From positions 50,402 through 114,401 of the IMG/VR virus record IMGVR_UViG_3300050343_000270: a stretch of 64,000 nt of DNA; one strand, given 5' to 3'. Source of the DNA: a virus. This document shows, one piece after another, positions 2,714 through 63,092 of the stretch; the first letter of the stretch is position 1; every line of letters begins with the position of its first letter. Under the pieces are notes generated by a model. It searched no databases and was not told the origin of the DNA. It saw only the letters and a list, made by a program, of their open reading frames with translations. The translations under genes and the position numbers were made by a program.

Positions 2714-2746
2714 TTGGGTGTAAGTTTTAAAAACATTTATCTACTT

Positions 2747-3919
2747 ATGTCATCAAGAACTCGCGTAATTTCACAAAACAAGTCCGTCTATGTATCTGAT
2801 ACTGGATGGTATATAGATGCCGACGAAAACATGATCGAGCCGCATCAGCTACATCGTGTTGATACCTTCTCCTTTGAAGTTGATTTAGCTGGCGCCCGCG
2901 AAGATATTCGCGAATTTGGTCAACTTGCTAGAATCGGCACTTTAACAATGAGGGAAATCAACCCAACAGTGTCATTTGGCTATTACCTCGGTAACGGCGA
3001 AAATGAACTTGCAATAGGACTAACTTCTTCAGAAGATTTCAATGCACAAATGATCAGTGGTATTTTAACTGAAGATGTTGCTAGTCGCGAGAAGAACATT
3101 TACACCGTTATTGTTAAAGAAGGCGAAGACGCTTTCAACTCATCTGCTTATCAATCGCAAAGCGAAAACCATGATGTTATTGGTTTCGGAAACTCTGTCT
3201 TAACAAGTTACAGCAGTAACTTCGCTGTTGGAGAAATCCCTAGGGTAGATGTTGAGTGGGAAGCCTCAAATGTGATTTTCTACACAGGTGGTCACTCTGG
3301 CTTCAAGAACCCATCAATTGATAAAGAGGGCGCTCGTGCTGATGAAGGTGTTTTCAATCTTCCTGCACCAAGCACTGGAAACATGAACGTTTTAGTTCTT
3401 CGTCCCGACGACATCACTGTTAGCTTTGCTAATGACGACATTACCGCTGGAAATCTCGGTGGAACAAACTTTAGTGACATGTGTATCCAAAGCTGTTCTG
3501 TTGAAGTTCCATTAAGTCGTGGTAATATTGAATGTCTTGGCGAAGAAAGAGCGGTTGCAAAACCACTTGAGTTCCCAATCGATGTTACTGTCAGCATTAA
3601 CGCTATTGTCAAAAACTTCAAAGAAGGCGCTCTTGAGTATGTTCTCACAGGAACTGCTGGAGACAATAACACCGACATCAGTGTTGATATTAAGAATGAC
3701 GCTCTCGATGGAGTTCACAAGTTCACCCTTAAGAATGCTGTTCTCGACAACCAAAGCTTTAGCCAAGGTCTAGACGACAACGAAACTGTTGACTTGACTT
3801 TCTCTGCTCAAATTGGTGGAGCTAGCACAACCACAGATGGATTATTCTGGAGTGGTGCGGGAACTTACACTTCAGCAGTCCCAACCAGCGGTGACGCGGT
3901 AGCGGCTCAACCAATCTAA
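2747..3919 (+). CDS. Major tail tube protein
   Basis: ATG 2747 (MSSRTRVISQ); acidic and beta-rich with tube-like motifs (REDIREFGQL, SRGNIECLGE); preceded by GTGTAA and followed by a strong terminator. Confidence 0.7.
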   Translation: MSSRTRVISQNKSVYVSDTGWYIDADENMIEPHQLHRVDTFSFEVDLAGAREDIREFGQLARIGTLTMREINPTVSFGYYLGNGENELAIGLTSSEDFNAQMISGILTEDVASREKNIYTVIVKEGEDAFNSSAYQSQSENHDVIGFGNSVLTSYSSNFAVGEIPRVDVEWEASNVIFYTGGHSGFKNPSIDKEGARADEGVFNLPAPSTGNMNVLVLRPDDITVSFANDDITAGNLGGTNFSDMCIQSCSVEVPLSRGNIECLGEERAVAKPLEFPIDVTVSINAIVKNFKEGALEYVLTGTAGDNNTDISVDIKNDALDGVHKFTLKNAVLDNQSFSQGLDDNETVDLTFSAQIGGASTTTDGLFWSGAGTYTSAVPTSGDAVAAQPI

Positions 3920-3944
3920 GCTAATTTATTATTAGTTGCTCAAT

Positions 3945-3977
3945 AGCGGCTCTGCCTTGTGGCAGGGTCGCTTTTTT
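3945..3977 (+). terminator. Rho-independent terminator after the tail tube gene
   Basis: AGCGGCTCTGCC-TTGT-GGCAGGGTCGCT followed by a T run. Confidence 0.8.
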
Positions 3978-3983
3978 GTGTAA
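3978..3983 (+). promoter_or_regulatory. GTGTAA motif (putative phage-sigma promoter)
   Basis: 8 nt upstream of ATG 3992, immediately after a terminator; one of nine similarly placed copies. Confidence 0.65.
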
Positions 3984-3991
3984 TATAAGAC

Positions 3992-4930
3992 ATGCCAGTG
4001 TTTCGTATAGATTCAAGTGACAAACAGGTTTTCATCAACAATACTAGGTTGATGGGCGTTCAGGCTTGTAATATAGAGACGGATAAGGATTTCGAAACTA
4101 TACGATCAATTGGAGATATCAATGTCACTGATAGGATTTTAAAATCAAATCAAACGACAAATCTATCGATTGACTTCATGCTTTGCGATACTAATCAAAA
4201 CGACCCATTTTTTGATTTTCAAACAAGCGGGATTCTTTCTGTTGAAGATTTCAATTACAACATTAAAGACTCTGTTCAGGAAACTGTCATTACTGGCGCA
4301 TACATGACCTCCTACAGCATTGAGGGTGCTGTTGGTGAGTTGGTCAAGGGAAGCGTGGCTTACGAGTGTGATGGCTTTGATTTCAATAATACAGGCATAT
4401 TAAGCGGAAACTATCAAAGTAGCGATTCTTACAGTGTGTATCAACCGCAGGATATTTCTATTTCCACGGATTTTAATGAAGGTGTGTCTACTTCTGGTTT
4501 GTGCATACAGAACTTTAGCTTAAATTTTGATATTAGTAGGAACGCTATAAACCAAATGGGCAGTCTTACGCCAAAAATGCGATACCCAGAGTTGCCAGCG
4601 GAAGGTGATTTGAGTTTCTCTGTTATTAAGAATAAAGTAACTGGAATTGATTTGTCTTCACTGGTTCTTGATAAAGGCTTGTTGAGTATAACGCTTAATG
4701 AATCCCAATCCAACCAAAGACAATACAATATAAACGACTGCTCTTTAATTTCTATATCAGAAGGGCATTCTTTAGACGACAATGCGACCTTAGATTTTAA
4801 ATATGTATTTAGTGTAAATAAGAGCGATGTATATGACACTGACCATTTTTATAGATCACCTGTTTACAGATCGACTTCTGGATTTACTTATCTACAACCT
4901 GACGGGTCCAGTTTTTATATACAACCTTAA
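3992..4930 (+). CDS. Tail-tube paralogue (baseplate tube-like protein)
   Basis: Collinear similarity to 2747-3919: MTSYSIEGAVGEL vs LTSYSSNFAVGEI; CIQNFSL vs CIQSCSV; SLDDNATLDF vs GLDDNETVDL. Confidence 0.65.
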   Translation: MPVFRIDSSDKQVFINNTRLMGVQACNIETDKDFETIRSIGDINVTDRILKSNQTTNLSIDFMLCDTNQNDPFFDFQTSGILSVEDFNYNIKDSVQETVITGAYMTSYSIEGAVGELVKGSVAYECDGFDFNNTGILSGNYQSSDSYSVYQPQDISISTDFNEGVSTSGLCIQNFSLNFDISRNAINQMGSLTPKMRYPELPAEGDLSFSVIKNKVTGIDLSSLVLDKGLLSITLNESQSNQRQYNINDCSLISISEGHSLDDNATLDFKYVFSVNKSDVYDTDHFYRSPVYRSTSGFTYLQPDGSSFYIQP

Positions 4931-4950
4931 TTCTAACACCACTAAAAATT

Positions 4951-6180
4951 ATGCCTGACGTAACTGTAACATCCGATATAGATACTTTTTTAAAGAGTTC
5001 AAATAATTCAACTGCCAGAACAAACCTTGGAGCAGAATCTGCACCCACCTCTATCGCCAACAAAGAAGCCGCCTATGCCCTGACAGGTGTGGCAGTCGGC
5101 ACCGTTTATAAGACCGAGGACACGGGGCAGGTGATGGAGTATCGAGGGGGAGGGGAATCTTTGCCTACCAGTTGGCAATTTAACGTCACTGTAGACGGGG
5201 GCAGTAAAAACGCGAAACTCTCCGACATACCAGCAGGGAACCCAGCAGGTATCGTCAGAATGGTCAGCACAAAGACCAGCAACTTATCCGTCACGGTAAA
5301 ACATGATGGCACGGAGTCGGCTACGGGCATCTGTTACTCAGTGGACGGAGGCGCACCTGTCTATGGAGCCATTGCGGCAGATACCAGCCTTAATCTATCC
5401 ATCCCACACAATGGCGGCGCCCCCACGGAAATTTACATTTGGAGTGCTACCAGTGCCTCTAGCGGCAAGAAAGGGGAGTTGACCTATCTGTCTTGCTCCA
5501 ACATCTCCTTGACCTCACTTGATGTTTCGGGCTTGACGGCATTGACCCTTCTGTATTGCCACAACAACTCCTTGACCTCACTTGATGTTTCGGGTTTGAC
5601 GGCATTGACCACTCTGTATTGCCACGAAAACTCCTTGACCTCACTCGATGTTTCGGGCTTGACGGCATTGACCACTCTGTATTGCTACAACAACTCCTTG
5701 ACCTCACTCGATGTTTCGGGCTTGACGGCATTGACCCTTCTGTATTGCCACAACAACTCCTTGACCTCACTCGATGTTTCGGGCTTGACGGCATTGACCA
5801 CTCTGTATTGCTACAACAACTCCTTGACCTCACTCGATGTTTCGGGTTTGACGGCATTGACCTCTCTGTATTGCAACAACAACTCCTTGACCTCACTCGA
5901 TGTTTCGGGTTTGACGGCATTAACCTATCTGTTTTGCACCAACAACTCCTTGACCTCACTCCTAGCAACGGGCGTTGACCTTAGCTTTGAGTATTATGGA
6001 GTAGTAGGCTCCGACATCGGTGACAACGACCTGACCGAAGCGGCATTGATCGCGTTTGTAGATTCCCTCGCCACAACCGCAACGGGGCTTATCGCATACG
6101 GCGGCAACATAGGTTCCGCAGAGTTTGAAACATGGCTCGCAACGGGCGATGACAAGGGATACATCTGGTTAAATAGTTAA
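4951..6180 (+). CDS. Leucine-rich repeat protein, putative receptor-binding/fibre protein
   Basis: N-terminal ARTNLG fibre-type motif; ~7.5 LRRs LTSLDVSGLTALTxLYCxNNS; located in the tail module. Confidence 0.75.
   Translation: MPDVTVTSDIDTFLKSSNNSTARTNLGAESAPTSIANKEAAYALTGVAVGTVYKTEDTGQVMEYRGGGESLPTSWQFNVTVDGGSKNAKLSDIPAGNPAGIVRMVSTKTSNLSVTVKHDGTESATGICYSVDGGAPVYGAIAADTSLNLSIPHNGGAPTEIYIWSATSASSGKKGELTYLSCSNISLTSLDVSGLTALTLLYCHNNSLTSLDVSGLTALTTLYCHENSLTSLDVSGLTALTTLYCYNNSLTSLDVSGLTALTLLYCHNNSLTSLDVSGLTALTTLYCYNNSLTSLDVSGLTALTSLYCNNNSLTSLDVSGLTALTYLFCTNNSLTSLLATGVDLSFEYYGVVGSDIGDNDLTEAALIAFVDSLATTATGLIAYGGNIGSAEFETWLATGDDKGYIWLNS
5479..5961 (+). repeat. 63-bp tandem repeat (7 full units plus partial flanks) encoding LRRs
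   Basis: TCCTTGACCTCACT recurs at 5506, 5569, 5632, 5695, 5758, 5821, 5884 and 5947. Confidence 0.95.
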
Positions 6181-6181
6181 T

Positions 6182-48444: not shown

Positions 48445-48450
48445 ACAAGC

Positions 48451-48660: not shown

Positions 48661-48670
48661 AACTTAATAT

Positions 48671-48694: not shown

Positions 48695-48704
48695 TTAACT
48701 TGTT

Positions 48705-48869: not shown

Positions 48870-48870
48870 T

Positions 48871-49092: not shown

Positions 49093-49094
49093 TT

Positions 49095-49299
49095 ATGAGT
49101 GGTTCAAAAAATAACACAGATAGCGGCGAGGACAAAAAACTCTTGTCGGCACTTCATGCAAAAGTAATGGAGGACATTTCTTTTCAAGAAGCTGTCCATA
49201 TCGTCTCAAGTGTAGTCATGGGAAAAATTGTTGATGAAGTGTCTGAGATGTCGGAAGATCAAAAGTCTGAAACTTATAAAAGACCTTGGTCTAAATTAA
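49095..49299 (+). CDS. Hypothetical protein (extra A near 49278; likely ends TYKDLGLN*)
   Basis: Correcting one base places TAA at 49297-49299, directly before the GTGTAA of the next gene. Confidence 0.45.
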
Positions 49300-49315
49300 G
49301 TGTAAGCATTTGTAT

Positions 49316-49808: not shown

Positions 49809-49810
49809 GT

Positions 49811-49839
49811 TTGGATTTTCTATGTTTTAACCTCATAAT
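49811..49839 (+). promoter_or_regulatory. Sigma70-type promoter, near-leaderless
   Basis: TTGGAT-17 nt-CATAAT, 5 nt before ATG 49845. Confidence 0.55.
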
Positions 49840-49844
49840 AAGTT

Positions 49845-50660: not shown

Positions 50661-50696
50661 CATAATAGATACAATATAAGTGTAAAAATGTTCATA

Positions 50697-51014
50697 ATGG
50701 ACTTTAAACTTTTGTTACGAGAATTTCTTTGTGAGGGTGGGTGGCTTGTTCCTGTTGTCGGAGCTTTTGGTATGCTAGCCAGAATTATGATCGACCCCAA
50801 CAAGCATTCTCTTTTCTCTCTCTTTAGAAAAATCTTCAGTGCGGCTATATCCAGTGGTATTGCTTGGTTTATTTTAAACGGCGCTCCTTTCTCTGATTTT
50901 ACAAAAGCTATATGTTATGGTGTGATTGGTGTTGTTAGTCCAGAAATCATTCAAGGTTTAATCGCTCTTGCTAAAAAATTTGAAAAAAACCCTTCTAAGT
51001 TTATAAAAAAATGA
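50697..51014 (+). CDS. Putative holin
   Basis: Three hydrophobic segments, basic C-terminus, coupled to the endolysin; GTGTAA at 50680, 11 nt before ATG 50697. Confidence 0.7.
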   Translation: MDFKLLLREFLCEGGWLVPVVGAFGMLARIMIDPNKHSLFSLFRKIFSAAISSGIAWFILNGAPFSDFTKAICYGVIGVVSPEIIQGLIALAKKFEKNPSKFIKK

Positions 51015-51679
51015 GTTTATTTTCGTGGATAAAAAATCTTTTCTCTAAAAAACAAAAAAGGGAGGTAAAAGATATATATATTCTTTCCGAAAAATCACTA
51101 AAACTCATTCTTCAATATGAGGTTGGGAATAAAGGTTATTATAATCGTTTTTTAGACCATCCAACTTACCCACAGGCTTCCAGCGGTGTCACAATTGGCA
51201 TCGGCTATGATTTAGGTTACAATTCAGCCGAAACTGTCAAAAAAGACTGGAAGAACTTCCTTTCTAAAAATGATTTAAAACGAATTACTTCTGTTGTTGG
51301 TTACAGAGGTGGTGTTGCCGAGTCACACGCGAAACGTATATCGGATATAACGATACCTTGGGATTCCGCTGTTCAGGTTTTCCAAGAAACAACTGTTCCA
51401 AAATTTATAAATTACACACTCAAAGCTTTCCCACAATGCGAGGATCTTCATCCTGATGCTTTTGGAGCGCTTGTTTCTATTGTTTTTAATAGAGGTGCTT
51501 CCATGAAGGGTTCTAGACGCTCTGAAATGCGCAATATTCGCTCTCTTGTCCTACAAAAAGACTACAAGTCTATCGCTCGTGAAATACGCTCCATGAAGCG
51601 TATATGGCGAGGAAAAGGCTTAGATGGCTTACTCAAGCGTCGAGAAGCTGAAGCGATATTAGTTGAATCTTGTATTTGA
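51011..51679 (+). CDS. Endolysin (lysozyme-fold, GH24/pesticin-like)
   Basis: YEVG...SGVTIGIGYDLG; ALVSIVFNRG; GLLKRREAEA. Confidence 0.82.
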   Translation: MSLFSWIKNLFSKKQKREVKDIYILSEKSLKLILQYEVGNKGYYNRFLDHPTYPQASSGVTIGIGYDLGYNSAETVKKDWKNFLSKNDLKRITSVVGYRGGVAESHAKRISDITIPWDSAVQVFQETTVPKFINYTLKAFPQCEDLHPDAFGALVSIVFNRGASMKGSRRSEMRNIRSLVLQKDYKSIAREIRSMKRIWRGKGLDGLLKRREAEAILVESCI

Positions 51680-51711
51680 CATTTGCTTAAAATTGTTTTA
51701 TTATAATTAAC

Positions 51712-52011
51712 ATGATACACGATTTTTTTAACCTGCGTAAAATCACCAGAGATGATATTTTGCGCTATGTTTTGCGCAATACTAATTTTTGCCCTATCGA
51801 GCAACAAATCGATCCACTTTATTTTGAGGTCTTTGAGGAATGTATTTTAAATTCCCATACAAAAGAAATCATAGATCAAGATCAGGAGTTTGTTTTCTTT
51901 CAAAAAGAGCTTTCTAAATTAAGACGTTTAGCCCCTAATATGAAAAAGTCTGAAATTCTTTCCTTGTGTGAAGAACTAGAAAGCTTCGCGCCGAAAACAA
52001 TTAAAGTTTAA
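51712..52011 (+). CDS. Hypothetical protein
   Basis: Preceded by TTGACA (51676)-17 nt-TATTAT. Confidence 0.6.
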   Translation: MIHDFFNLRKITRDDILRYVLRNTNFCPIEQQIDPLYFEVFEECILNSHTKEIIDQDQEFVFFQKELSKLRRLAPNMKKSEILSLCEELESFAPKTIKV

Positions 52012-52069
52012 ATAATACTTTTTGTAAGTTGATTGTTAAAATTAGATTTTTTATCTATATTGATATATA

Positions 52070-52462
52070 ATGGGTATGGCAAAAAAACCAATATTCAGTA
52101 AGGTTGAACAGCATGACAAAGCATGGGGTCGTGAGCTTTGGATGGTTAACAATGAGAAGTATTGCGGCAAAATACTTGAGTTTAATCAAGGCTCTTCTTT
52201 TTCCATGCACTATCATATCAAAAAGGAGGAAACTTGGATGGTCGTTCAGGGAGTATTTGAAATGGAATATTTTGATCTTAAGTCGGCTGATATTTCAAAA
52301 ACCATTTTAAATGTGGGTGACACAGTTCATTTAGAGCCTAGCATCCCTCATAAACTAACCTGTGTTGAATGTGAGAGTGGTAAAGGCATGATATTTGAGG
52401 TTAGCACACAACATTTTAATGAAGATTCCTATCGAATTGGCAAGGGTGATTCTCAAAAATGA
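52070..52462 (+). CDS. Cupin sugar isomerase-like protein
   Basis: KAWGRELW...YCGKIL...SMHYHIKKEETW...PH...EVSTQH..EDSYR. Confidence 0.75.
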   Translation: MGMAKKPIFSKVEQHDKAWGRELWMVNNEKYCGKILEFNQGSSFSMHYHIKKEETWMVVQGVFEMEYFDLKSADISKTILNVGDTVHLEPSIPHKLTCVECESGKGMIFEVSTQHFNEDSYRIGKGDSQK

Positions 52463-53244
52463 ATATTTTAGTTATAGGAGAATCTTGTAAAGATGTTTTT
52501 GTTTATGGGTCTATTGATAGAATTTGCCCAGAAGCCCCCGTTCCTGTTTTTGTCCCCAATCGGCAAACGGCGCACCTAGGCATGGCTGGAAATGTCACAC
52601 TTAACATTTGTGCTATTTCAGGACTCAGAAAAGATAGCGATACTGAATGCCATTTGCATTCAAACCTAACTAAAGGTCACAAGACTCGCTTTGTTGACGA
52701 ATCGTCTAATCAAATGCTTATGCGTATTGATACAGACTCTTACGATGAAAATCATGTGCGCAATAAATTTAAAAACATTAAAAGTATTGATTTTTCTATT
52801 TATGATGCTGTCGTTGTTTCTGATTACAACAAGGGTTTTTTGAGTTATGATGATATAAACTATATCGCTGACAAAACGCGGGAATCTAGCAACGCTAAAT
52901 TATTTATAGATACAAAAAAACATCCTCGCAGTTCTTCTGATTTTTCTGGTTTCGATTTTATAAAAATTAATGAGAAGGAGTTTACTGAAAACGGTTTCAG
53001 TGAATTATATGAAGACTATGAATCTCAATTAATTATCACCAAAGGCTCTAAAGGATGTAGCTACAAAAACAAAGACTATCCATGTCAAGCTACTCAGGTT
53101 TTCGATGTTTCTGGCGCGGGGGACACTTTCTTGGCGGCTTTTGTTTATGAATACATGAAAACGTTAGATGTAGAAAAAGCTCTTGACTTTTCTCAAAAAT
53201 GCTGTAGTGTCGTTGTAGCCAAAAAAGGAGTATGCACAGTTTGA
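52459..53244 (+). CDS. rfaE1: PfkB-family heptose-7-phosphate kinase (HldE kinase domain)
   Basis: ILVIGE..D...RICPEAPVPV, GMAGNV, KTRF, SDYNKG, VFDVSGAGDT. Confidence 0.85.
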   Translation: MNILVIGESCKDVFVYGSIDRICPEAPVPVFVPNRQTAHLGMAGNVTLNICAISGLRKDSDTECHLHSNLTKGHKTRFVDESSNQMLMRIDTDSYDENHVRNKFKNIKSIDFSIYDAVVVSDYNKGFLSYDDINYIADKTRESSNAKLFIDTKKHPRSSSDFSGFDFIKINEKEFTENGFSELYEDYESQLIITKGSKGCSYKNKDYPCQATQVFDVSGAGDTFLAAFVYEYMKTLDVEKALDFSQKCCSVVVAKKGVCTV

Positions 53245-53738
53245 AACACAATAAGATACTATCTTACGAAGATTTAACAAAAGAAGTTAAACAAATCCAC
53301 GACATGAGAGGATTTGGGATCTGTCCTCCCCTCGCTTTAACAAATGGTTGTTTTGATTTGTTTCATGCTGGTCACGCCCGATTATTAAATTCGATCAAAT
53401 CATCTATTATTGGCGGCAAATTGATTGTGGGTATCAATAGCGATGAAAGCGTCAAATGTCTCAAGGGTGACAGCCGCCCGATTATTCCCGCCGATCAAAG
53501 GGCTTACATCATAGCTAGCCTAGCTTGTGTTGATTATGTGTTTATTTTTCCAGAAACAAACATTGAACGATACTTGAGGGAAATCAAGCCTGATATTTGG
53601 TTTAAGGGTGGGGACTATAATATAAACTCTCTAAACAAGGAGGAGGAGGAAGTGATCAGAAGTTGCCGTATTGATGTTCGCTTTGAATCATTCGTAGAAG
53701 GCATAAGTTCAACTAATATTATAAAAAAAATAAAATGA
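53232..53738 (+). CDS. rfaE2: Heptose-1-phosphate nucleotidyltransferase (HldE domain II)
   Basis: TNGCFDLFHAGH, VGINSDESV..LKG..RPI, KGGDY, FVEGISST. Confidence 0.88.
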   Translation: MHSLKHNKILSYEDLTKEVKQIHDMRGFGICPPLALTNGCFDLFHAGHARLLNSIKSSIIGGKLIVGINSDESVKCLKGDSRPIIPADQRAYIIASLACVDYVFIFPETNIERYLREIKPDIWFKGGDYNINSLNKEEEEVIRSCRIDVRFESFVEGISSTNIIKKIK

Positions 53739-54055
53739 AAAGAGTTTGTGTAGATATCGACGGCACAATATGCAGTCTAACAGATGGTGACTATAATATG
53801 GCTAAACCGTATACCGACCGCATTGATTTTGTTAATGAACTGTATGACAAAGGAGTGGAAATAATCTACTGGACGGCGCGTGGAGGAACGTCTGGTAAGG
53901 ATTATACAGACCTCACAACACGCCAGCTTGAAGAGTGGGGAGCCAAATATACGAAGCTTCTTTTGGATAAAATGTCATTCGACGCTTTGATTGACGATAA
54001 AGCATTTAACTCTAACAAATTTTTCTCAGGAGAATATTCTTATGATTTCACATAA
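53735..54055 (+). CDS. Minimal HAD phosphatase
   Basis: DIDGTI, WTARG, LIDDKA. Confidence 0.75.
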   Translation: MKRVCVDIDGTICSLTDGDYNMAKPYTDRIDFVNELYDKGVEIIYWTARGGTSGKDYTDLTTRQLEEWGAKYTKLLLDKMSFDALIDDKAFNSNKFFSGEYSYDFT

Positions 54056-54575
54056 AGCAAAAAATATGTCGTCACCGCGACACATTCACAAATCACAACA
54101 CCTAGGTCAAAGTGGCGAACGTCGTTTTTACGATAGCTGTAAAGTCTTAGGTAAAGATGTAAAGAAGACCTCCAAAGCTGATGATATGGGTCATGTTGAT
54201 TTTGTTGTGGACTCGCAGACATACGATGTCAAAGGTCTCAAAGATAGCACTAAAGAAGGTTTTATTCTATTGGAGTTGAAAAACGTACAGGGGAAAAAGG
54301 GTTGGTGTAATGATGAAGAAAAACCTGATTGGATTGCTTTTGATTTTGGTGCGTTCTTTGCATGTTTTAAAAATTCTGACTTGTATAAAGCTAGTCAAAA
54401 ATTATGCGATCTATCGGATACAGTATCAAAAGCAAAGGATTGTCTATACAAGGGGTATACGAGAAGGGGTCGAGAAGATCTAATGACAATGATAACACTA
54501 CAAGACGCGCTCAACAACTGTGAGCATATGTTCATTCCTTATAAGGAATATAGTGAACCTATGGAGTTATTATAA
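54042..54575 (+). CDS. PD-(D/E)XK-like endonuclease
   Basis: GQSGERRF...HVDFVV...YDVKG...LLELKNVQGKKGW. Confidence 0.55.
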   Translation: MISHKAKNMSSPRHIHKSQHLGQSGERRFYDSCKVLGKDVKKTSKADDMGHVDFVVDSQTYDVKGLKDSTKEGFILLELKNVQGKKGWCNDEEKPDWIAFDFGAFFACFKNSDLYKASQKLCDLSDTVSKAKDCLYKGYTRRGREDLMTMITLQDALNNCEHMFIPYKEYSEPMELL

Positions 54576-55228
54576 TGAAACTTGCCACAGCATTATTATC
54601 ATCTTATGAAAGGCAAGACAATCTACGCAAGATTATCGACAATTTGCGTAAACAATCTGTCGATGTTGATATTTTTTTATGGAATAATAATCCAGAAGAT
54701 AAAACAGAATATCCTGTAGAACTTCAAATCAACTCTTCGAAAAATTTGATGTGTTGGGGGAGGTGGTTCATGGCGAATTACGCCAGCGCAGATTATGTAT
54801 TTTCCTTGGATGATGATCTGCTCTTTACAGATAACCGCATGATTGAGGATTCTATTGATTATCTTGACAAAAATGATTGTGACGCTATTGGTTACAGTGG
54901 CGTTAGAATTATAGACGATTCAAAAGACTACTTTGACCAAAAACACATCTTCCTTGCTCGACAAGATCAGACAGTTGATATCATAAAGGGCGGGTTTTTA
55001 TTTGCTAAAAAGCAAAACTTAAGAATACCACAAGATTTATTTGACGCTTGCACCGAAAACCCAAGGATAGAAGACGATATTATTATCTCTTCTTTCTTAG
55101 ATAAAAAAGTCGTGCCAAGCTTTATGAGGAGAAGGCTCAGGAGTCAAGATGGTTTTTTTAATGGCTTGCACTCTCAGCCCGACCATTCACAATCCAGAAC
55201 CCAATACATGAGGAAGTATTATGGATAA
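54575..55228 (+). CDS. GT-A fold glycosyltransferase (GT2-like)
   Basis: SYER..NL; YVFSLDDD; EDDI. Confidence 0.7.
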   Translation: MKLATALLSSYERQDNLRKIIDNLRKQSVDVDIFLWNNNPEDKTEYPVELQINSSKNLMCWGRWFMANYASADYVFSLDDDLLFTDNRMIEDSIDYLDKNDCDAIGYSGVRIIDDSKDYFDQKHIFLARQDQTVDIIKGGFLFAKKQNLRIPQDLFDACTENPRIEDDIIISSFLDKKVVPSFMRRRLRSQDGFFNGLHSQPDHSQSRTQYMRKYYG

Positions 55229-55958
55229 GCATCTATTTGTTATAGTGCGATACAACAATGTTATACAGAAAATGTATCAAGATTATATTGCACCCAAAAA
55301 CAAGGACTACTGTGAGCGTCACGGCATTCAATATATTGAAGTAAACCACGATTGGGATATTCCCGATTTTCGAGGTAATATCACTTGGATGAAATTTTAT
55401 CTTGTGCAGGAGTGGATTAAAAAAGGTATTTTAAATGACGGCGACTCGATTGTTAATTTCGATGCTGACATGGTTGTTGTTAAGCCTGAGCTTGAATACA
55501 AGACCGACAAGAGCTTTTCTTACGCCATAGATAGCTGTAACAGCCATTGCATGGGAAACTACTGCATCAATATCAATGATTGGAGCAAGAAGCTTGTAAA
55601 CGACATTCTGGACGAAAACCTATATCAAACTCATAAGCACACAAGACACTGGAAGTTTTTCAGAGAACAGGCGGCTTGGTATACTTTGGCTGGGATTGAT
55701 GCTTCTTGTAAACAGTCTTACTTGAATCAGGGAGATTATGGATTTCACTCTGTCGATACAGGAGTGTATTCTTTGGAAGAGTTGCGAGAACACGTTGACG
55801 TTAAACCTCCAATTTGGGATTGCACTCTATTAGAAGATGAAATTGACAATAGACGCGCCGCAAGGATTCAACCACTATTCATCAACAAAACACAGCCCAA
55901 AGACACAATTATTCGTCATTTTGCGGCTAGACAACCTTGGAGAAAAAAATACTTATGA
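55221..55958 (+). CDS. GT34-like glycosyltransferase
   Basis: YCERHG.QY, WMK, FDAD, REQAA, IRHFA. Confidence 0.7.
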   Translation: MDKHLFVIVRYNNVIQKMYQDYIAPKNKDYCERHGIQYIEVNHDWDIPDFRGNITWMKFYLVQEWIKKGILNDGDSIVNFDADMVVVKPELEYKTDKSFSYAIDSCNSHCMGNYCININDWSKKLVNDILDENLYQTHKHTRHWKFFREQAAWYTLAGIDASCKQSYLNQGDYGFHSVDTGVYSLEELREHVDVKPPIWDCTLLEDEIDNRRAARIQPLFINKTQPKDTIIRHFAARQPWRKKYL

Positions 55959-56692
55959 TTGCAACATTAACAATGTGTAGTTTGGATTTTGATGAGGATT
56001 ATATTCCTCATTATTTAAATCATTATAATGAACAGGAAATAGATAAACATATTTTAATGCTTCATTCTAAAAAAGCTGTAGATGAAGATTATTCTAGAGA
56101 TAAGTATTCCGCTGATAATGTTAATTTGTTTTTTACTTATGGTGAGTGGAATTCTGTTGTCATGCAAAACGAAAAACACAGCTTGCTAAAAAAATTAGAT
56201 ATTGGTATTGACGATTGGATTATTAATTCAGATATTGATGAACACGCCGAATCAAAGCACGGCTCTCTAAGAAGTAAAATTTCAGAAATGACAGGTAATG
56301 GAGAAAATTGCTGTGTCGGTAGAATGGTTGACAGAATTACAGAAAACGGATCTTTCAGTAAAATACTACCAGATATACCGCTTTCAGAACAGTTTCCTCT
56401 GTCTGCTAATATTGGGAGGAGATTACTACGTTGCCAAACAAGAAAATTGCCTATTTCAAGAGGTGATATCACTACTCTTGGAGGGAATCATCATGTTATT
56501 CCAGACCACGAAAAAAAGGCGGTTTATAACGATGAAGTTTTAACAGTGAATCATTATAAATGGACAGCCAGAACCAAAGAAAAGCTTGAGGAAAGGGTTC
56601 GCACTCACAAAGCTTTTTATCACTGGAGGGAGTCAGCTAGGTTCTTAGATTATCTTGATAAAGGAGGAAATATTAATAAATTTAAACAATGA
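55955..56692 (+). CDS. GT2-like glycosyltransferase
   Basis: YLNHY; WIINSDIDE; GNHH; HYKW. Confidence 0.7.
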   Translation: MIATLTMCSLDFDEDYIPHYLNHYNEQEIDKHILMLHSKKAVDEDYSRDKYSADNVNLFFTYGEWNSVVMQNEKHSLLKKLDIGIDDWIINSDIDEHAESKHGSLRSKISEMTGNGENCCVGRMVDRITENGSFSKILPDIPLSEQFPLSANIGRRLLRCQTRKLPISRGDITTLGGNHHVIPDHEKKAVYNDEVLTVNHYKWTARTKEKLEERVRTHKAFYHWRESARFLDYLDKGGNINKFKQ

Positions 56693-57357
56693 ATTACACT
56701 TGCTTAATACTAACTCATAAAAACAAAGCCAGCGGCAAAGTCTTAACGCCGCATCTAGAGGTCTTCAAACAAAACAACCCACAATGCAATGTGCGTATAG
56801 TTGTTGGAGAAGATCACGCGCAAGGCAAAAGATATAATTGGCGCAATGGCGATCAACCACTTAGAAAGTGGTGGCTGGAAAACTCTAATCTAGTTGCAAC
56901 AGAAAATGTTGCCGTGATCGAATGGGACACGCTAGTTAATTGTGAGCTTCCTGCAATTCCAGAACAGTTCGATCTAGTTGGCGCTCAATACATGAAAGAA
57001 CCATTTCATCTAAGAGGCAAATGGAGGTGCAGAAGCCAAGAAGACCCAAAGTGGACTCCAGACAACTGGTGGTGGTGGAGAGAAATTCCGCTATTAGAAT
57101 TGAATAAGGGAGAACAAGCTTGTGGTTTAGTTTCGTTGGGTTGTTTCTTAATGAGGCGATGTGTATTAGACGCTGTATGTAAAAAAAGATGGGACAAAGT
57201 TTATTCAAAGAATATAATTAGTGAAATGAGATTTCCTACAGTCGCAAGTATCGAAGGAGCAAGGATTGGGCAAATCGACCTACCATTCGTTCATCATTCG
57301 ACAATGAATTTCTCTGGCGAGAAACAAATATATCATCCTATTAAAGAAGCTCAATGA
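56689..57357 (+). CDS. Putative GT-A fold protein
   Basis: WRNGD...IEWD...SEMRFPT...YHPIK; within the GT run. Confidence 0.45.
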   Translation: MNYTCLILTHKNKASGKVLTPHLEVFKQNNPQCNVRIVVGEDHAQGKRYNWRNGDQPLRKWWLENSNLVATENVAVIEWDTLVNCELPAIPEQFDLVGAQYMKEPFHLRGKWRCRSQEDPKWTPDNWWWWREIPLLELNKGEQACGLVSLGCFLMRRCVLDAVCKKRWDKVYSKNIISEMRFPTVASIEGARIGQIDLPFVHHSTMNFSGEKQIYHPIKEAQ

Positions 57358-58064
57358 AAAAAAACGTATTTACATATTGGCAGGGGCAAAAAACAGATTT
57401 AATCATTGATCTTGAAAAACGGCTTAGACAAGTTTGTTCGGATAATGGCTACCACCTTTTCGAACTAGATGAAAAATCTATACGTGATCATCTTGATCTT
57501 CCAGACTGTTTCAACAATGCCACTCATGTTATTGATATCAGTGATTTTATACGCATTGAACTTTTGGTTAAATATGGTGGGATTTGGTTAGATAAAGACG
57601 TTATTTCCTTCAAAAAGTTCGATCACCTTTTTCAAACTATTGAAGATAAAAGCGGTTTTATTGTTGGGGTTCCCATGCAATATAGAATGGGTATCAATAA
57701 CGCAATTCTTGGCGCGTCAACAGAATGCGCCTTTTATAAAAGGTGGTCGCAACACAATCATAAAGTAATCCAACAACCAAAACCAACTTGGGGTAAATTA
57801 CCTTTCGGCGTTAATCTCCTTAAAAAAGCGAAACGAGAATCTTGGATACAAAATATCGAAGTAATTAATGGTTACGAAACAAGAATGGAGTTCTTTGGAA
57901 GCTATCGTGTGCAAAAATTACTGATGGATTTAGACCCAGAATGCGTAATGAACGCTAACCCTAGTTTAGTGCATTTGTTTGACAGAAATTGCCGCATGTA
58001 TAACAAGATAAATCAACAAGAAAAAGAAAACACCTTGCTGTATAGGTTGTTGAATTACAAATAG
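57354..58064 (+). CDS. GT32/capsular synthesis-type DXD glycosyltransferase
   Basis: VFTYWQG; SDFIRIELLVKYGGIWLDKD. Confidence 0.8.
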   Translation: MKKNVFTYWQGQKTDLIIDLEKRLRQVCSDNGYHLFELDEKSIRDHLDLPDCFNNATHVIDISDFIRIELLVKYGGIWLDKDVISFKKFDHLFQTIEDKSGFIVGVPMQYRMGINNAILGASTECAFYKRWSQHNHKVIQQPKPTWGKLPFGVNLLKKAKRESWIQNIEVINGYETRMEFFGSYRVQKLLMDLDPECVMNANPSLVHLFDRNCRMYNKINQQEKENTLLYRLLNYK

Positions 58065-59237
58065 TAATCATCTTGTCCCCAATACGGAGCGGTCCCATCG
58101 TGGTGTAAAACAGGGTCGCCATAAAATGCGGCTAACTCGGCTGGAGTTGGAGCCGCCAATGTCACCCAAGCAACACCGTTGTAATATATTATATCACCAG
58201 TCGATCCAGCGGGTAGAATGTCTTCAGCGTCTGGAAATGCTATTTCTGTGTGGTCCCCTGCCTCGTCTGTATAAGTAAAACCGTCTAGGCTCTCCACGAC
58301 GGTCGTTACAGTTTCGTTAATATCTGTATCAACTCCTCCCCCCGCCCCGCCGTCATTGTGTGTCGCTATCTTGTTGACGTCCATAGAGGAGCTTTCAGGG
58401 GTGATAACAGATTTTGTGCCTTGTGGAAAGAACACCTGTCGTTTCGTCTCCCTTTCTCGTCTGTGTATGTAAAATAATCAGAGCTAAGAGTCTGGGTGTT
58501 GCCCCCGTATAAGCTCTATGGTTGTAACACGTTCGTAAATGTCTTGTAGTAACTCCTCCGTTCGCCCCGCCGTCATTGTGTTCCGCTATCTTGCGACCTT
58601 CCATAGGTAATGGACTCTCTGGGGTGAGGGTAGATTTTGTGTTGGCTGGAAACGGTATTTCGTTCTCTTCCTCTTCTTCGTCTGTGTAGACAAAGCCATT
58701 GTCACTAAGCTCTATTTTGGTTACGGTTTCATTAATGTCTACGTCTTCAGAATCCTTAATTCCGTCATTGTGTTTAGCTATCTTTTTAGTATACGTAGCT
58801 TGGTTGAGGTCAGTCAAAACTGACGGTTTTGAGAAACCCCAATGAATATTTTCTCTCAGTTTGAACGACTTAATTGTCAAGTCTGTTTCTATCTCGCACA
58901 CAAGAAAGTATTTAGCGTCTTCGCTAGATGCTGGAACATCGCCCGCCGTTTCCATTAATGCGGCGTTTACTGCTCTTCCTTCATCTAGAGACAAGGAAAC
59001 GTAAAATTTCTTTGCCCCATCCCCTATCTCGAACGTTGAATTCATCCCAGAAATCTCTATCGGTGGGTGAATTATATCGTTTTGGTGGTCATAAACATAA
59101 GCTTGGTTAAACCTAACTTGATATTTCGGCGCTTCTCCTTCTTCGACTGATTTAATAGAAAAAGTAGGATAGAAAGGATGAACATATAAAATTGGTTTAT
59201 ATGTTTTTGATTCTGGTGTTTTCGAAGTGTCACTCAT
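58055..59237 (-). CDS. Fibre-like protein with three ~55-aa repeats (several indels at 58430-58550)
   Basis: KIAxHNDG...D(I)xE(T/R)VT...FxYTDE x3 across the two listed ORFs; C-terminal GDIIYYNG.AW fibre motif. Confidence 0.6.
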
Positions 59238-59240
59238 TCC

Positions 59241-59534
59241 CTAGAAATATCTTTTAATTTCGCCGCCTCCGTCTATGTAATATAAATCTCCGAACTCTTT
59301 AAATTTTTCGCATGAAATTGTTTTTATTGTCTTTTCTGGGTCTTCTTGATTTAAGCTGTGAAAATACTTTACAGCACCATCTTTTAAAGATCCGTCCTTA
59401 AACAAAAATTCCTTTTCACAAAAGTAACAATCTTTTAGAACGGTGTTTGACCAAATTTCAATATAAGCAAACTGGTTATCAAAATCGTGTCTTTTTGTTT
59501 CCAGAGTTATTATTTTCTTAACTATTGTTTTCAC
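59241..59534 (-). CDS. Hypothetical protein
   Basis: Preceded by TTGATA-17 nt-TATAAT, 5 nt before GTG. Confidence 0.55.
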   Translation of the reverse strand: MKTIVKKIITLETKRHDFDNQFAYIEIWSNTVLKDCYFCEKEFLFKDGSLKDGAVKYFHSLNQEDPEKTIKTISCEKFKEFGDLYYIDGGGEIKRYF

Positions 59535-59641
59535 TACTAATTATAAGCTGTTTTTTATTTAATATCAATTTAAAGCTTTTTAAATACATACATGTTTACA
59601 CTTCTTGTTGTTATTTTTCTTTTTTTGCAATATAATGATTT

Positions 59642-59857
59642 ATGGCTAGTCGAAATCCAATAACAAACGATGAAATTAAATCTCGCGGTTATAGCAAGCA
59701 AGGGCGCGATAACTTTCGGCGCATTTTTGAAAAGAAAACTTTTTCAGAATGGGTTGTGGAAGAAGCCGTTGACAACCTGAAAGATTCATTTACTGACGAT
59801 TTTGCAAAAATAACCTATCAGGAGTTTTTAAAAAAGGTGGACAACTTAAATAAATAG
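59642..59857 (+). CDS. Hypothetical protein
   Basis: TATAAT 5 nt before ATG. Confidence 0.6.
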   Translation: MASRNPITNDEIKSRGYSKQGRDNFRRIFEKKTFSEWVVEEAVDNLKDSFTDDFAKITYQEFLKKVDNLNK

Positions 59858-59872
59858 TGTAATTTTAAACCC

Positions 59873-60259
59873 ATGAAGAAGACTTTTAAGATACTAAGTG
59901 AGGCTGTTGCTCAATCAGCGGTTGATGATGGAAATAAACTAGGTTTCCAAGCAGAAAGTTCACAACTTGAAGATGGGACGTATGAAATATCTTACGCCTC
60001 TTCTTACGATGAACCAGCTACACAAGAGCAGGAGGCTAAACCCACTTATGACGACCTAGGTTACATGAGAAAAGAGTTTGCTTATGAAATGAAATACATG
60101 CGTGAAGACATGGCTTACATGAGTCAATCTTTAATGGAGCATAAAAAAGGTCACTTACCTCCATTCGCGGATGCTGGCAAATTTAAAGCGGCTTTAGAAA
60201 CCCTCGGTCTTGGTGAATCTTACGAAGTACGCAAGCCAACCATCTCTGTTGAATACTAA
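59873..60259 (+). CDS. Hypothetical protein
   Basis: GTGTAA at 59857, 10 nt before ATG. Confidence 0.65.
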   Translation: MKKTFKILSEAVAQSAVDDGNKLGFQAESSQLEDGTYEISYASSYDEPATQEQEAKPTYDDLGYMRKEFAYEMKYMREDMAYMSQSLMEHKKGHLPPFADAGKFKAALETLGLGESYEVRKPTISVEY

Positions 60260-60272
60260 CTAACACTGAATC

Positions 60273-60380
60273 ATGCTCGCCATAATCTCACAATATATTC
60301 ATGCTGGTTTTTGGGTTATAATGTTCGGAGTGCTTTACTCTTTGACGTTGCGAGCAGTCTACAATCATAACAAAAAATAG
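60273..60380 (+). CDS. Small membrane protein, 35 aa
   Basis: MLAIISQYIHAGFWVIMFGVLYSLTLRAVYNHNKK*; followed by a terminator. Confidence 0.4.
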   Translation: MLAIISQYIHAGFWVIMFGVLYSLTLRAVYNHNKK

Positions 60381-60403
60381 TTTAAATTAATTTTTAATCA
60401 AAT

Positions 60404-60435
60404 ACTCACCGCTGTTTTGGCGCGTGAGTTTTTTT
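60404..60435 (+). terminator. Rho-independent terminator
   Basis: ACTCAC-CGCTG-TTT-TGGCG-C-GTGAGT followed by a T run. Confidence 0.6.
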
Positions 60436-60491
60436 GTCTTATCGAATATCGCGCCGTTAATTATATCATTAGTTTTGGTGTAAGGATCTTT

Positions 60492-60833
60492 ATGATTGAA
60501 AGAATTACCGACACCTTACAAGGCAAAGCTCCCTTATCAGCGAAACGTTCTCCAAAGTGGAGCAGTGTTCGCAAAGAATTTTTGGAAAACAACCCTGTCT
60601 GTGCTTGTTGCGGCGGCGTAAAAAAACTTCAGGTTCATCACATCAAACCATTCCACACTCACCCTGAGTTAGAATTAGATACTGATAATTTAATAACTCT
60701 TTGTCGGCGCAAAAAATACGGAATCGACTGTCATCTTCTTGTTGGTCATTTGGGTTGGTTTAAAAATATCAACAATCATGTCATTGAAGATTCTCAGTTG
60801 TGGAATCAAAGGCTTAAAGAGCGCAATTTTTAA
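60492..60833 (+). CDS. HNH endonuclease
   Basis: CACC...VHHIKP...NLITLC...CH..VGH; start 60492, 8 nt after GTGTAA at 60478. Confidence 0.85.
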   Translation: MIERITDTLQGKAPLSAKRSPKWSSVRKEFLENNPVCACCGGVKKLQVHHIKPFHTHPELELDTDNLITLCRRKKYGIDCHLLVGHLGWFKNINNHVIEDSQLWNQRLKERNF

Positions 60834-60866
60834 ATTCTGCACGGTTTTTTTATTTACAAAATCGTC

Positions 60867-60895
60867 TTGACAAAAAGTTTTTTTTCACATATAAT
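60867..60895 (+). promoter_or_regulatory. Consensus sigma70 promoter
   Basis: TTGACA-17 nt-TATAAT. Confidence 0.8.
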
Positions 60896-60916
60896 TGGGT
60901 GAAAGATGCAACTATT

Positions 60917-61264
60917 ATGACCAAATTAGAAGAACTGGACGAAAGAAAAAACACAATCGGTATATTACAGAATAAATGCGATAGCATATACGAGGAATTT
61001 ATCGATGGAGTTCCTTCATGTATTCACGATTACATTTTTGATTATCTATTTAATGACATCCTGTGGGTAAAACACGAGATTAAAAAGGTGTTAGACGAAG
61101 AGGAAGCTTGCAAAAATGAAGTTACAATGACCCCCTGCGATAATGGTTTTGTCGTTAATAAAACATGGTCACAAAGTGGCAATTGTAGCAGTATTATATT
61201 GACAAAGGAAGAGATTATTGAACTATACGAACAAACAAAATGCACGGAACAGAACTATCATTGA
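60917..61264 (+). CDS. Hypothetical protein
   Basis: ATG 60917 preferred because GTG 60899 lies only 3 nt after the -10 box. Confidence 0.55.
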   Translation: MTKLEELDERKNTIGILQNKCDSIYEEFIDGVPSCIHDYIFDYLFNDILWVKHEIKKVLDEEEACKNEVTMTPCDNGFVVNKTWSQSGNCSSIILTKEEIIELYEQTKCTEQNYH

Positions 61265-61332
61265 GATTTAGGCTAACAATTGCATTTTTCGTAATAAGTG
61301 GATTCATCCTGTTGCTTACTTTAATTCATTAA
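61240..61332 (+). CDS. Small membrane protein, 30 aa
   Basis: MHGTELSLRFRLTIAFFVISGFILLLTLIH*. Confidence 0.35.
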   Translation: MHGTELSLRFRLTIAFFVISGFILLLTLIH

Positions 61333-61341
61333 AACAATCAA

Positions 61342-61884
61342 ATGAAAATTAAAAAACTATTTAGAGTATACTTTTGGAGAAATCTTGTATATAAAATTAA
61401 GTGCTTCTTTAGTCCCAGCCAAGAATGGCTGACAGATGTTATTCCAGATACGCATTGTGACAAGGTAGAGCTTATTCCAAGGATGCTATTCGAGTGTCTT
61501 GTTCATTATGTTGAAGTCGAAACCCAAAACGATTGGACTCACCCTCTTGGTCATATATACGAAGAAGAGCTAAAACTCGGTTATGTTACTCAAGAGTATG
61601 TTGATCATGTCATGAAGATCGATAAAGATTTACTTAAAGCATACAAATGGATCAAAGAGGGTAGAGTAGAGTTAAAGCAGAAGCTCGACGATGCATACCC
61701 TCCGAGCAAGAGCATTCGTGATATGTTCACAAAAACGGAAGATGGTAATTACAGCATGAATCCGCTTTCCGAAGAAGAAAGCACTTGCTATGCTGAAGTT
61801 ACGAGACTGGAAATAATCTTATCAGACAAGGATATTGAGGCTATGCAAATCATAGTAAAGCATCACAACTCATTATGGACGTAA
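61342..61884 (+). CDS. Hypothetical phage protein
   Basis: 180-aa ORF ending SLWT. Confidence 0.65.
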   Translation: MKIKKLFRVYFWRNLVYKIKCFFSPSQEWLTDVIPDTHCDKVELIPRMLFECLVHYVEVETQNDWTHPLGHIYEEELKLGYVTQEYVDHVMKIDKDLLKAYKWIKEGRVELKQKLDDAYPPSKSIRDMFTKTEDGNYSMNPLSEEESTCYAEVTRLEIILSDKDIEAMQIIVKHHNSLWT

Positions 61885-61922
61885 TCTCTACCATATATAG
61901 AATTTTTTGTGTATAATATAGT

Positions 61923-63038
61923 ATGCCACTTCCTGAACCACAAAAAAAACAAACCAAGAGTGATTTTATTTCTTCTTGTATGGTAGAATCAAAAATGGTT
62001 GAAGAGTTTCCTAATGTGAAACAAAGAGCCGCGATTTGTAATTCTCAATGGAACGCTGAGAAATCTAAGGCTTCAGTGGTTGTTGAATCTGATGGTAATG
62101 AAATAACCTTTAGTGATTTCGCAGAAGAATCTGAGTCTGCTAAAAGATCTGGTCGCAAAAGCGCCGCTCAAACTCCAGCCAAACCATCAGAAAAGAAAAA
62201 GGGTTCTAGTAAAAATAAATCTGGATCAGCAGGTAAGGGCGGTAAATCAATTACTTTTTCAGCCAAGGTTACTGAGTCTCTAAAAAACAAAGTCAAGGAG
62301 CATAACGCCAAATATTCCAAAAAAGTATCACTCTCTCAACTTAAAAAAATCTATCGTCGTGGTGCAGGTGCGTTTAGTTCTAGTCACCGTCCTAACAAGA
62401 CACGCGGTCAGTGGGCAATGGCGCGAGTAAATATGTTTCTTAAGATGGTTAGGGGCGGCAAGGTTAAAAAATCTTATCGCGCCGCCGATCAGGATGTAGC
62501 AAAGGGTTCTGAAAAATATTACATGGAAGACCAAGCAAATGTTTTTCTTGATTTTAATGAAATTCAACTTGAGATTGCAAAGCTTGACTTAATTCAAGCT
62601 GGTCTGAAGGTTAGCGAACATAACCAAGAAGCAGAAGACTTAGAATACTCTGAGGCGGAAAAAAAGAAATTAAATAAGCCATTTCGCTTACCTTCTGGTA
62701 GCAAAAAGAAGTTTGGCGTTTATGTTAAAAACCCAAAAACAGGTAATACAATAATGGTTAAATTTGGCGATCCAAACATGGAGATCAAGAGAGATGACCC
62801 TGATCGCCGTCGTAATTTTAGATCGCGCCATAAATGCGATACCGCAAAAGACAAAACCAGTCCACGTTATTGGAGTTGTAAAATGTGGTCTAAGAAAAGT
62901 GTTAGTGATATAACTTCCAGTGCCTCTTTCGCAAGCGACGAATTCGATGAGGACAACCTCCCTTCTTGGGATAGCTTCCACGAAAACGCACAGGAATTTT
63001 TGTCTATTAAAGATTTTGTGATCGACGAAAAAATTTGA
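61923..63038 (+). CDS. Multidomain basic protein, possibly virion-internal
   Basis: MPLPEP..FISSCM..QRAAIC module; QWAMARVNMFL domain; VKFGDPNM..RRRNFRSRHKC..YWSCKMW module; GTGTAT 8 nt upstream. Confidence 0.6.
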   Translation: MPLPEPQKKQTKSDFISSCMVESKMVEEFPNVKQRAAICNSQWNAEKSKASVVVESDGNEITFSDFAEESESAKRSGRKSAAQTPAKPSEKKKGSSKNKSGSAGKGGKSITFSAKVTESLKNKVKEHNAKYSKKVSLSQLKKIYRRGAGAFSSSHRPNKTRGQWAMARVNMFLKMVRGGKVKKSYRAADQDVAKGSEKYYMEDQANVFLDFNEIQLEIAKLDLIQAGLKVSEHNQEAEDLEYSEAEKKKLNKPFRLPSGSKKKFGVYVKNPKTGNTIMVKFGDPNMEIKRDDPDRRRNFRSRHKCDTAKDKTSPRYWSCKMWSKKSVSDITSSASFASDEFDEDNLPSWDSFHENAQEFLSIKDFVIDEKI

Positions 63039-63078
63039 TTTTGCTATAGGGGTTTTTTTTGGTCTTTTTACACTTGTT

Positions 63079-63084
63079 GTGTAA
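63079..63084 (+). promoter_or_regulatory. GTGTAA motif (with an inverted copy at 63068-63073)
   Basis: 8 nt before ATG 63093. Confidence 0.65.
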
Positions 63085-63092
63085 CATATAGT

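Follow-up and report, generated by a model that had tools for sequence, protein, structure and literature searches.

A GTGTA box close before start codons as a candidate single-element promoter in a clade of large uncultured phages

Across a 64,000-nt stretch of the viral record IMGVR_UViG_3300050343_000270 (record positions 50,402-114,401; hereafter the window), the hexamer GTGTAA recurs at a short and nearly fixed distance before the start codons of a small set of genes, and the available sequences support its conservation across a large clade of uncultured phages. Evaluating its position, composition and genomic surroundings supported a single-element signal that behaves along the genome as a promoter would, with a geometry that implies leaderless or near-leaderless mRNA. 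The reading that we favour, to which as a whole we assign a probability of about 0.58, is that the box is a one-box promoter read by a divergent sigma factor encoded in the window itself (29113-29718) and that it yields near-leaderless messages. A preliminary description of this DNA had proposed the same arrangement; its single element, promoter-like behaviour and geometry stood, whereas the window sigma came out only as the likeliest reader of the box.

Results

Position and anatomy of the box

Each GTGTAA or GTGTAT copy listed in the preliminary description was found where it had been placed (Table 1). The 8-12 nt spacing that had been proposed before starts stood for nine GTGTAA copies and for the GTGTAT at 61909, with the proviso that the copy at 50680 attains it only from its second ATG, and the copies at 2718 and 26683 do have the 23-nt spacers reported for them. 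In overall number GTGTAA was not enriched in the window (39 copies versus 31 ± 6 in shuffles). At distances of 8-12 nt before 79 starts, nine copies stood against 0.11-0.14 expected (Poisson p 5e-15), in line with the 0.1-0.2 chance hits estimated earlier, and no more than 3 copies reached that distance in 2000 shuffles, so that the positional enrichment over shuffled controls holds. Because five of the starts behind the nine hits had been chosen with the motif in view, we repeated the analysis with motif-blind starts of the longest open reading frames (ORFs), which revealed GTGTAA as the top of all 4096 6-mers in the region from -30 to -1 (9 genes versus 0.6 expected, p 1e-8). An ORF-opening ATG lay 7-12 nt downstream of 21% of GTGTAA copies, versus 2.4% for 89 composition-matched permuted 6-mers.

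Scanning all 18 single-mismatch variants revealed enrichment before starts for GTGTAT (12%) and GTGTAC (11%) only, the others matching background, and the core of the box is GTGTA(A>T,C). So strict a core, with change tolerated at position 6 only, points to recognition by a protein. For the anatomy of the element we used 32 non-redundant sites from the window and its relatives, in which all six box positions were fixed and the information content was flat from -45 to -5, rising slightly in a T-rich stretch at -4 to -2. Position-wise information content over these sites showed no -35 box, the sequence 3' of the box was AT-rich (roughly tATAT), and the short spacers held no Shine-Dalgarno sequence, which bears out the earlier account of an AT-rich spacer with neither a Shine-Dalgarno sequence nor a -35 box. 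Treating GTGTAA and GTGTAT as two specificities was rejected, as the two have identical geometry and are intermixed along genomes. We found no literature linking GTGTAA to a phage promoter.

Among the genes behind a box, those with a recognisable product encode the tape measure protein, NrdB, an HNH endonuclease and a small regulator-like protein (27659-28045). The targets had previously been described as structural and lysis genes plus nrdB; the tape measure gene and nrdB agree with this, and the names "tail tube", "fibre" and "lysis" found no such matches in Pfam or PHROGs. The minus-strand box at 28058-28063 lies inside the glycosyltransferase gene upstream, at its 3' end. At 63068-63084 a reverse copy (63068-63073) stands just 5' of the forward box and forms the palindrome TTACAC-ttgtt-GTGTAA with it; the reverse copy is not followed by any convincing gene on the minus strand. 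Further sense-strand copies comprise a tandem GTGTAA pair at 15741-15758, before a GTG start at 15779, and single copies at 17305-17310 (34 nt before ATG 17345) and 227-232 (27 nt before ATG 260); these copies, 20-34 nt before starts, may be promoters with longer leaders or may be there by chance.

Table 1. Coordinates of boxes, sigma genes, host-type promoters and the terminator. Positions are those of the window, except for the second sigma genes, which are given on the contigs of relatives.
Feature	Coordinates	Strand	Details
GTGTAA, after terminator	3978-3983	+	8 nt to ATG 3992; 312-aa protein without family match
GTGTAA	9405-9410	+	9 nt to ATG 9420; tape measure protein, 1142 aa, Pfam PhageMin_Tail 97 bits
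GTGTAA	28058-28063	-	12 nt to ATG 28045; 128-aa product, N-terminus matches PHROG 385 "transcriptional regulator"
GTGTAA	30001-30006	+	11 nt to ATG 30018; nrdB
GTGTAA	49300-49305	+	10 nt to ATG 49316; 58-aa ORF
GTGTAA	50680-50685	+	2 nt to ATG 50688, 11 nt to ATG 50697; about 105 aa
GTGTAA	59857-59862	+	10 nt to ATG 59873; 128 aa, without family match
GTGTAA	60478-60483	+	8 nt to ATG 60492; HNH endonuclease, 113 aa
GTGTAT variant	61909-61914	+	8 nt to ATG 61923; 371 aa, DUF5824
GTGTAA	63079-63084	+	8 nt to ATG 63093; 84 aa
GTGTAA, long spacer	2718-2723	+	23 nt to ATG 2747; 390 aa; weaker case
GTGTAA, long spacer	26683-26688	+	23 nt to ATG 26712; 316 aa; in 36-nt divergent intergenic region
Intrinsic terminator	3945-3972	+	12-bp stem and T-run, -22.9 kcal/mol, z = -6.9
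Window sigma gene (A1)	29113-29718	-	201 aa; sigma2 and sigma4 domains, from profiles and structure model
Host-type promoter of window sigma gene	29730-29757	-	TTGACT-16-CATAAT; -10 ends 11 nt before ATG
Host-type promoter, perfect	60867-60895	+	TTGACA-17-TATAAT; small-gene region; -10 near start codon
Host-type promoter	48416-48444		-10 near start codon
Host-type promoter	51676-51704		-10 near start codon
Host-type promoter	59608-59636		-10 near start codon
Host-type promoter	59540-59568	-	-10 near start codon
Second sigma gene	G005:C1:43081-43818		
Second sigma gene	G010:C1:167977-168720		
Second sigma gene	G008:C1:37317-38015		
Second sigma gene	G011:C1:144188-144871		
Second sigma gene	G001:84459-85208		

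Conservation in relatives

Judging from the complete genomes of its clade, which span 140-214 kb, the window is a fragment of a larger phage genome. No close cultured relative was found (megablast of 6 kb; tblastn of the window sigma; INPHARED, 50,697 phage records), the best INPHARED identities being at most 33% for the DNA polymerase and at most 57% for NrdA. Relatives were gathered from IMG/VR with the window sigma as bait, which yielded contigs with 36-44% identical sigmas, four of which were fetched whole (G001-G004). Blind 6-mer tests of these placed GTGTAA 1st in G002 (7 versus 0.25 expected), 1st in G004 (6 versus 0.27) and 3rd in G001 (8 versus 0.45), relatives whose sigmas are 37-44% identical to that of the window, and in G003 GTGTAT and GGTGTA emerged in place of GTGTAA.

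Conservation was also visible at single genes and at greater distance. Before nrdB, GTGTAA-N11-ATG was kept in loci L005-L009 and L034 despite divergence in the preceding 30 nt, and GTGTA[AT]-N8-13-ATG persisted in contigs that carry the most distant sigma homologues (32-35% identity) and are binned with unrelated bacteria. Enrichment of 6-mers and 7-mers upstream of genes gave two motif classes only, host-type and GTGTA, with no third; a CACAAC lead in G001 was tried as a third promoter class and rejected as incoherent.

The window sigma and its promoter

The ORF at 29113-29718 is, by profile comparison and structure prediction, a divergent two-domain protein of the sigma-70 family and of ECF size, for which binding to core RNA polymerase and promoter specificity are predicted. 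It scored 39.4 bits (E 4.5e-10) against TIGR02937 (sigma70-ECF), just under the cut-off of 42.9 and covering profile positions 2-163 of 165, and 17.4 bits, below cut-off, against Pfam Sigma70_r2. A profile built from the 27 sequences of its family matched region 2 of SigA, FliA and ECF sigmas in the PDB, and residues 117-190 aligned weakly to region 4 of SigA. In the AlphaFold2 model (predicted local distance difference test score 83) helices occupy residues 143-196, the Foldseek matches listed for this model were sigma factors, either alone or within RNA polymerase complexes, and the sigma4-like recognition helix hardly varies among family members. The earlier call of a sigma factor was thus upheld by TIGR02937, by the family profile against the PDB and by Foldseek. 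Of eight relatives traced by their DNA polymerase, seven carried a window-type sigma; the exception is only 32% complete, which leaves no relative in which the sigma is clearly missing.

The host-type promoter claimed earlier for the sigma gene was likewise confirmed, and most relatives have a comparable one: in L005-L013 and L033-L035 a TTGAnn -35 followed by a -10-like hexamer stands at the same place, and at the most distant loci, L036 and L037, no host-type promoter precedes the gene. GTGTA never preceded the window-type sigma gene in the relatives examined. Within the 200 nt that precede the sigma gene, the nrdB-sigma intergenic regions of L005-L009, L010-L013 and L033-L035 carry iteron-like direct and inverted repeats (of the TACGTATCCTTAC and CTTACGTA types) that could be operators or an origin; the corresponding region of the window (29719-30017) has no iteron-like repeats.

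Among five GTDB matches to the window sigma, three lie on contigs in Flavobacteriales or Flavobacteriaceae bins of metagenome-assembled genomes (L033-L035). Despite this binning, the early promoters of the phage are of the TTGACA/TATAAT type and not of the Bacteroidota TTTG/TAnnTTTG type.

A second sigma in complete relatives

Complete relatives (140-214 kb) encode a second conserved sigma of about 230-250 aa, which exceeds the gathering cut-off of Pfam Sigma70_r2 and shows no specific similarity to the window sigma. The gene lies outside the 64-kb window and is absent from the incomplete contigs G002, G003 and G004, and we counted more than 587 such loci in IMG/VR; G008 and G010 carry further sigma-like ORFs. 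At 53 of 55 second-sigma loci, GTGTA[AT] and an ORF-opening ATG stand 0.9-3 kb upstream on the same strand, at the head of the operon, with spacers of 8-9 nt in about two thirds of the loci and of 10-29 nt in the rest. Neither a host-type promoter nor a third motif was seen at this operon. Every complete genome checked holds both sigmas.

Message geometry

To read the box as a translation signal one would have to explain its rarity, as it stands before about 12 of 79 window genes and some 85% lack it. A Shine-Dalgarno or general translation signal was rejected on this count and because the sequence of the box is unrelated to AGGAGG. The boxes of relatives with spacers of 17-22 nt have their own AAGGA within the spacer, which argues that the box is not the ribosome site. 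At the 3978 copy, the strongest terminator of the first 20 kb directly abuts the box and leaves 19 nt between its stem and ATG 3992, so that the gene needs a promoter of its own there, and no -10/-35 pair fits between the terminator and this ATG. The same order of terminator, box and ATG recurs in relatives (G004). Terminators before the other boxes of the window were also sought, and only that at 3945-3972 was convincing.

Host-type promoters provide a ruler for these distances. Their -10 boxes end 5-8 nt before ATG in the window (region 48400-61000), and in the early small-gene array of G005 (L123 700-4000) TTGCAx-17-TATACT is followed by exactly 6 nt and then ATG. Measured by this distance, transcription would begin at the A of the ATG, and on the same scale the GTGTA box would occupy roughly -15/-14 to -10/-9. 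Early mRNAs therefore look leaderless as well, as though leaderless mRNA were a general habit of the clade.

Other genes of the window

Within the virion-gene module, 4951-6180 (+) encodes a leucine-rich-repeat protein (Pfam LRR_4, 91.7 bits), unusual for a phage, which may be a receptor-binding or host-interaction protein. Adjoining the DNA polymerase gene, 46049-48214 (+) encodes a 721-aa AAA+ protein with a 325-bit match to PHROG 4871, "ATP-dependent protease". The loci 24364-26106 (-), 28047-29135 (-) and 34625-35665 (+) comprise two glycosyltransferase-like genes and one for a nucleotide-sugar epimerase; one of the glycosyltransferase genes separates the sigma gene from the regulator-like gene that has a box, and these genes may serve glycosylation of DNA or of a surface. 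No tRNA genes were found in the 64-kb window.

Discussion

Bringing these observations together, we propose that GTGTA(A>T,C), with its T-rich 5' flank and AT-rich 3' flank, would be the sole recognition element of a middle/late phage promoter that has no -35, and that host core RNA polymerase would be directed to it by a phage-encoded sigma, the likeliest reader being the window sigma (29113-29718), made early. RNA synthesis would begin some 8-10 nt past the TGTA core, at the ATG or a few bases from it, and the resulting mRNAs, leaderless or nearly so, would need no Shine-Dalgarno sequence. In such a cascade, host sigma-70 would first read TTGACA/TATAAT promoters abutting start codons and thereby give rise to the phage sigma, which would then switch on the GTGTA promoters of nrdB, the tape measure gene, other virion-module genes, the HNH gene and the small regulator; in complete relatives, GTGTA promoters would also head the operon holding the second sigma. 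This order, from host sigma-70 to window sigma to GTGTA, is the most economical, as it is the window sigma whose gene follows a host-type promoter, and a third class of motif was not found. With GTGTA heading the second-sigma operon, the box must be readable before the second sigma exists.

Our confidence differs along this chain. That GTGTA(A/T/C) is a promoter seems highly probable given its position, strictness and surroundings, and that a phage sigma reads it is probable; the window sigma as the specific reader is only modestly favoured. Domains of multisubunit RNA polymerases (PF00623, PF00562; Rpb1/Rpb2) were found in none of the five complete relatives in searches whose controls responded, which points to the use of host core RNA polymerase, with the limit that very divergent phiKZ-type subunits could escape PF00623 and PF00562 and that the search for T7-like PF00940 had no responding control. 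A phage-encoded RNA polymerase is thus an unlikely reader.

Several observations weigh against the favoured reading, most of them bearing on which sigma reads the box. With a second sigma and further sigma-like ORFs in the clade, the pairing of box and sigma is, as far as gene content goes, not unique, and the constant company of the two sigmas means that co-occurrence cannot separate the candidate readers. The presence of GTGTA before the second-sigma operon could itself mean that the second sigma reads it. The window sigma keeps its conserved sigma4-like helix-turn-helix, yet no -35 box was found for it to bind, a strange combination for a sigma of ECF size and a contrast to gp36 of phage phiEco32. 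As for the box, GTGTAA within genes is not depleted (39 copies versus 31 expected), and both copies with 23-nt spacers (2718 and 26683) lack a Shine-Dalgarno sequence in the spacer.

The main rival holds that the box is a phage promoter read by the second sigma, which would autoregulate its own operon and leave the window sigma with another target. ECF-type sigmas commonly autoregulate, a promoter before the own operon being the typical arrangement, and this is what the complete relatives offer, all of them having a second sigma with an above-cut-off Sigma70_r2 match and an operon that GTGTA[AT] heads at nearly all loci. A newly infecting phage, however, would hold no second sigma, and something else would have to fire its operon first, for which neither a host-type promoter nor a third motif is seen there; nor is there a third motif class for the window sigma to serve, and it is the window sigma that stands behind a host-type promoter in most relatives (none at L036 and L037). 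We regard autoregulation by the second sigma as unlikely. It also appears improbable that the host sigma-70 holoenzyme reads GTGTA as a -35-independent class resembling extended -10 promoters, perhaps with a phage factor that disables -35 recognition. Precedent comes from the Thermus phage P23-45, whose extended -10 middle/late promoters are read by host sigma-A together with gp39, a factor of that kind (PMC7403470), and the bases after GTG are often TAATAT or TATAAT, so that with GTG at -15 to -13 the hexamer would end 5-9 nt before ATG, as in the host-type promoters of the phage. GTG abuts TA directly, though, which shifts TG by one base relative to TGnTATAAT; a T at the would-be -7 occurs in 20 of the 32 sites (62%), and the hexamers share about 3 of 6 positions with TATAAT. 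Tried on these 32 sites as an extended -10 sigma-70 class, the box was rejected for want of a spacer base and for its weak hexamer. Moreover, the host-type promoters of these phages have no GTG, the invariance of the box across contigs binned with very different bacteria fits a phage-borne reader, and two conserved phage sigmas would be left with no visible promoter class.

An action of the box on RNA, as a Shine-Dalgarno-independent translation enhancer or a processing site, or its use as an operator for a phage regulator, seems very improbable. The short and fixed distance to ATG with no Shine-Dalgarno sequence would suit a signal in RNA, and the small regulator-like protein (27659-28045), itself behind a box, and the operator-like TTACAC-N5-GTGTAA palindrome at 63068-63084 would suit an operator. 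Against an RNA signal, about 85% of genes, translationally coupled ones included, do without the box; a box placed right after a strong terminator would have no RNA to act on; in relatives the box is also found 17-29 nt before starts, a separate AAGGA intervening; and it is not complementary to the anti-Shine-Dalgarno sequence. Against an operator, the sites are single and asymmetric, one palindrome excepted.

For the phage-sigma promoter that we favour, the closest known case is that of phiEco32 gp36, by analogy and not by family membership. Middle/late promoters of phiEco32 consist of a single tAATGTAtA element with no -35, are read by the phage sigma gp36, which has no region 4 homology, and start transcription 6-8 bp downstream (PMC8948821). 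Both systems would have a sigma-family protein of the phage, known there and proposed here, that redirects host core to a single element with no -35; both have a TGTA core followed by A/T, the distance from TGTA to the transcription start there equalling that from TGTA to ATG here; and both have early genes on host sigma-70 promoters. The differences are that comparing the window-sigma family profile with gp36 by hhalign gave a probability of 0.4%, that the window sigma keeps a sigma4-like domain, that the promoters here abut start codons, and that the present clade is uncultured, has genomes of 140-214 kb and carries a second sigma.

Other phages offer partial parallels. In T4, late promoters (TATAAATA) are again a one-box element of the -10 region used by host core, recognised through gp55 together with gp33 and the gp45 clamp; gp55, a minimal sigma reduced to region 2, depends on the sliding clamp, and the late messages of T4 have leaders that contain Shine-Dalgarno sequences. 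The T4 box differs in sequence from GTGTA, and no clamp dependence is known for the latter. The likeness to gp55 drawn in the preliminary description captures a one-box promoter read by a phage sigma and is looser than that to gp36. P23-45 shares with the window a -35-independent class that takes over after early -10/-35 promoters, and differs in relying on the host primary sigma with no phage sigma and on an extended -10 in canonical register, GTG being out of register here (PMC7403470). In Bacillus phage SPO1 and Salmonella phage 7-11, temporal classes of genes are likewise driven by sigmas that the phage encodes. The successive phage sigma activities of SPO1 (gp28, then gp33/gp34) are comparable to the two sigmas of the present clade. 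Salmonella phage 7-11 gp47 reads a bipartite promoter, GTAAtg-16-aCTA (PMC8948821). Unlike the single element here, the promoters of SPO1 and 7-11 are bipartite, and there is no sequence relationship.

If the favoured reading is true, it would add a second, unrelated phage sigma to phiEco32 gp36 as reader of a single box in the -10 region; the retained sigma4 would raise the question of what role that domain has. A 6-bp orthogonal promoter paired with its sigma could also serve as a genetic part. For widespread uncultured large phages, the box would provide a compact and easily recognised promoter rule that improves calls of gene starts and operons and lets early and later genes be assigned from sequence alone, and their hosts would be ones that translate leaderless mRNA efficiently. 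As a bolder extension, which we hold at somewhat less than even odds, two sigmas may act in series in this very large aquatic clade, the first keeping its conserved sigma4 with no need of a -35, which for a two-domain sigma would be a novel way of recognising promoters; almost all genes of these phages would be expressed from leaderless mRNAs, early ones from host-type promoters whose -10 ends about 6 nt before the ATG and later ones from a so far undescribed one-box GTGTA(A/T) promoter.

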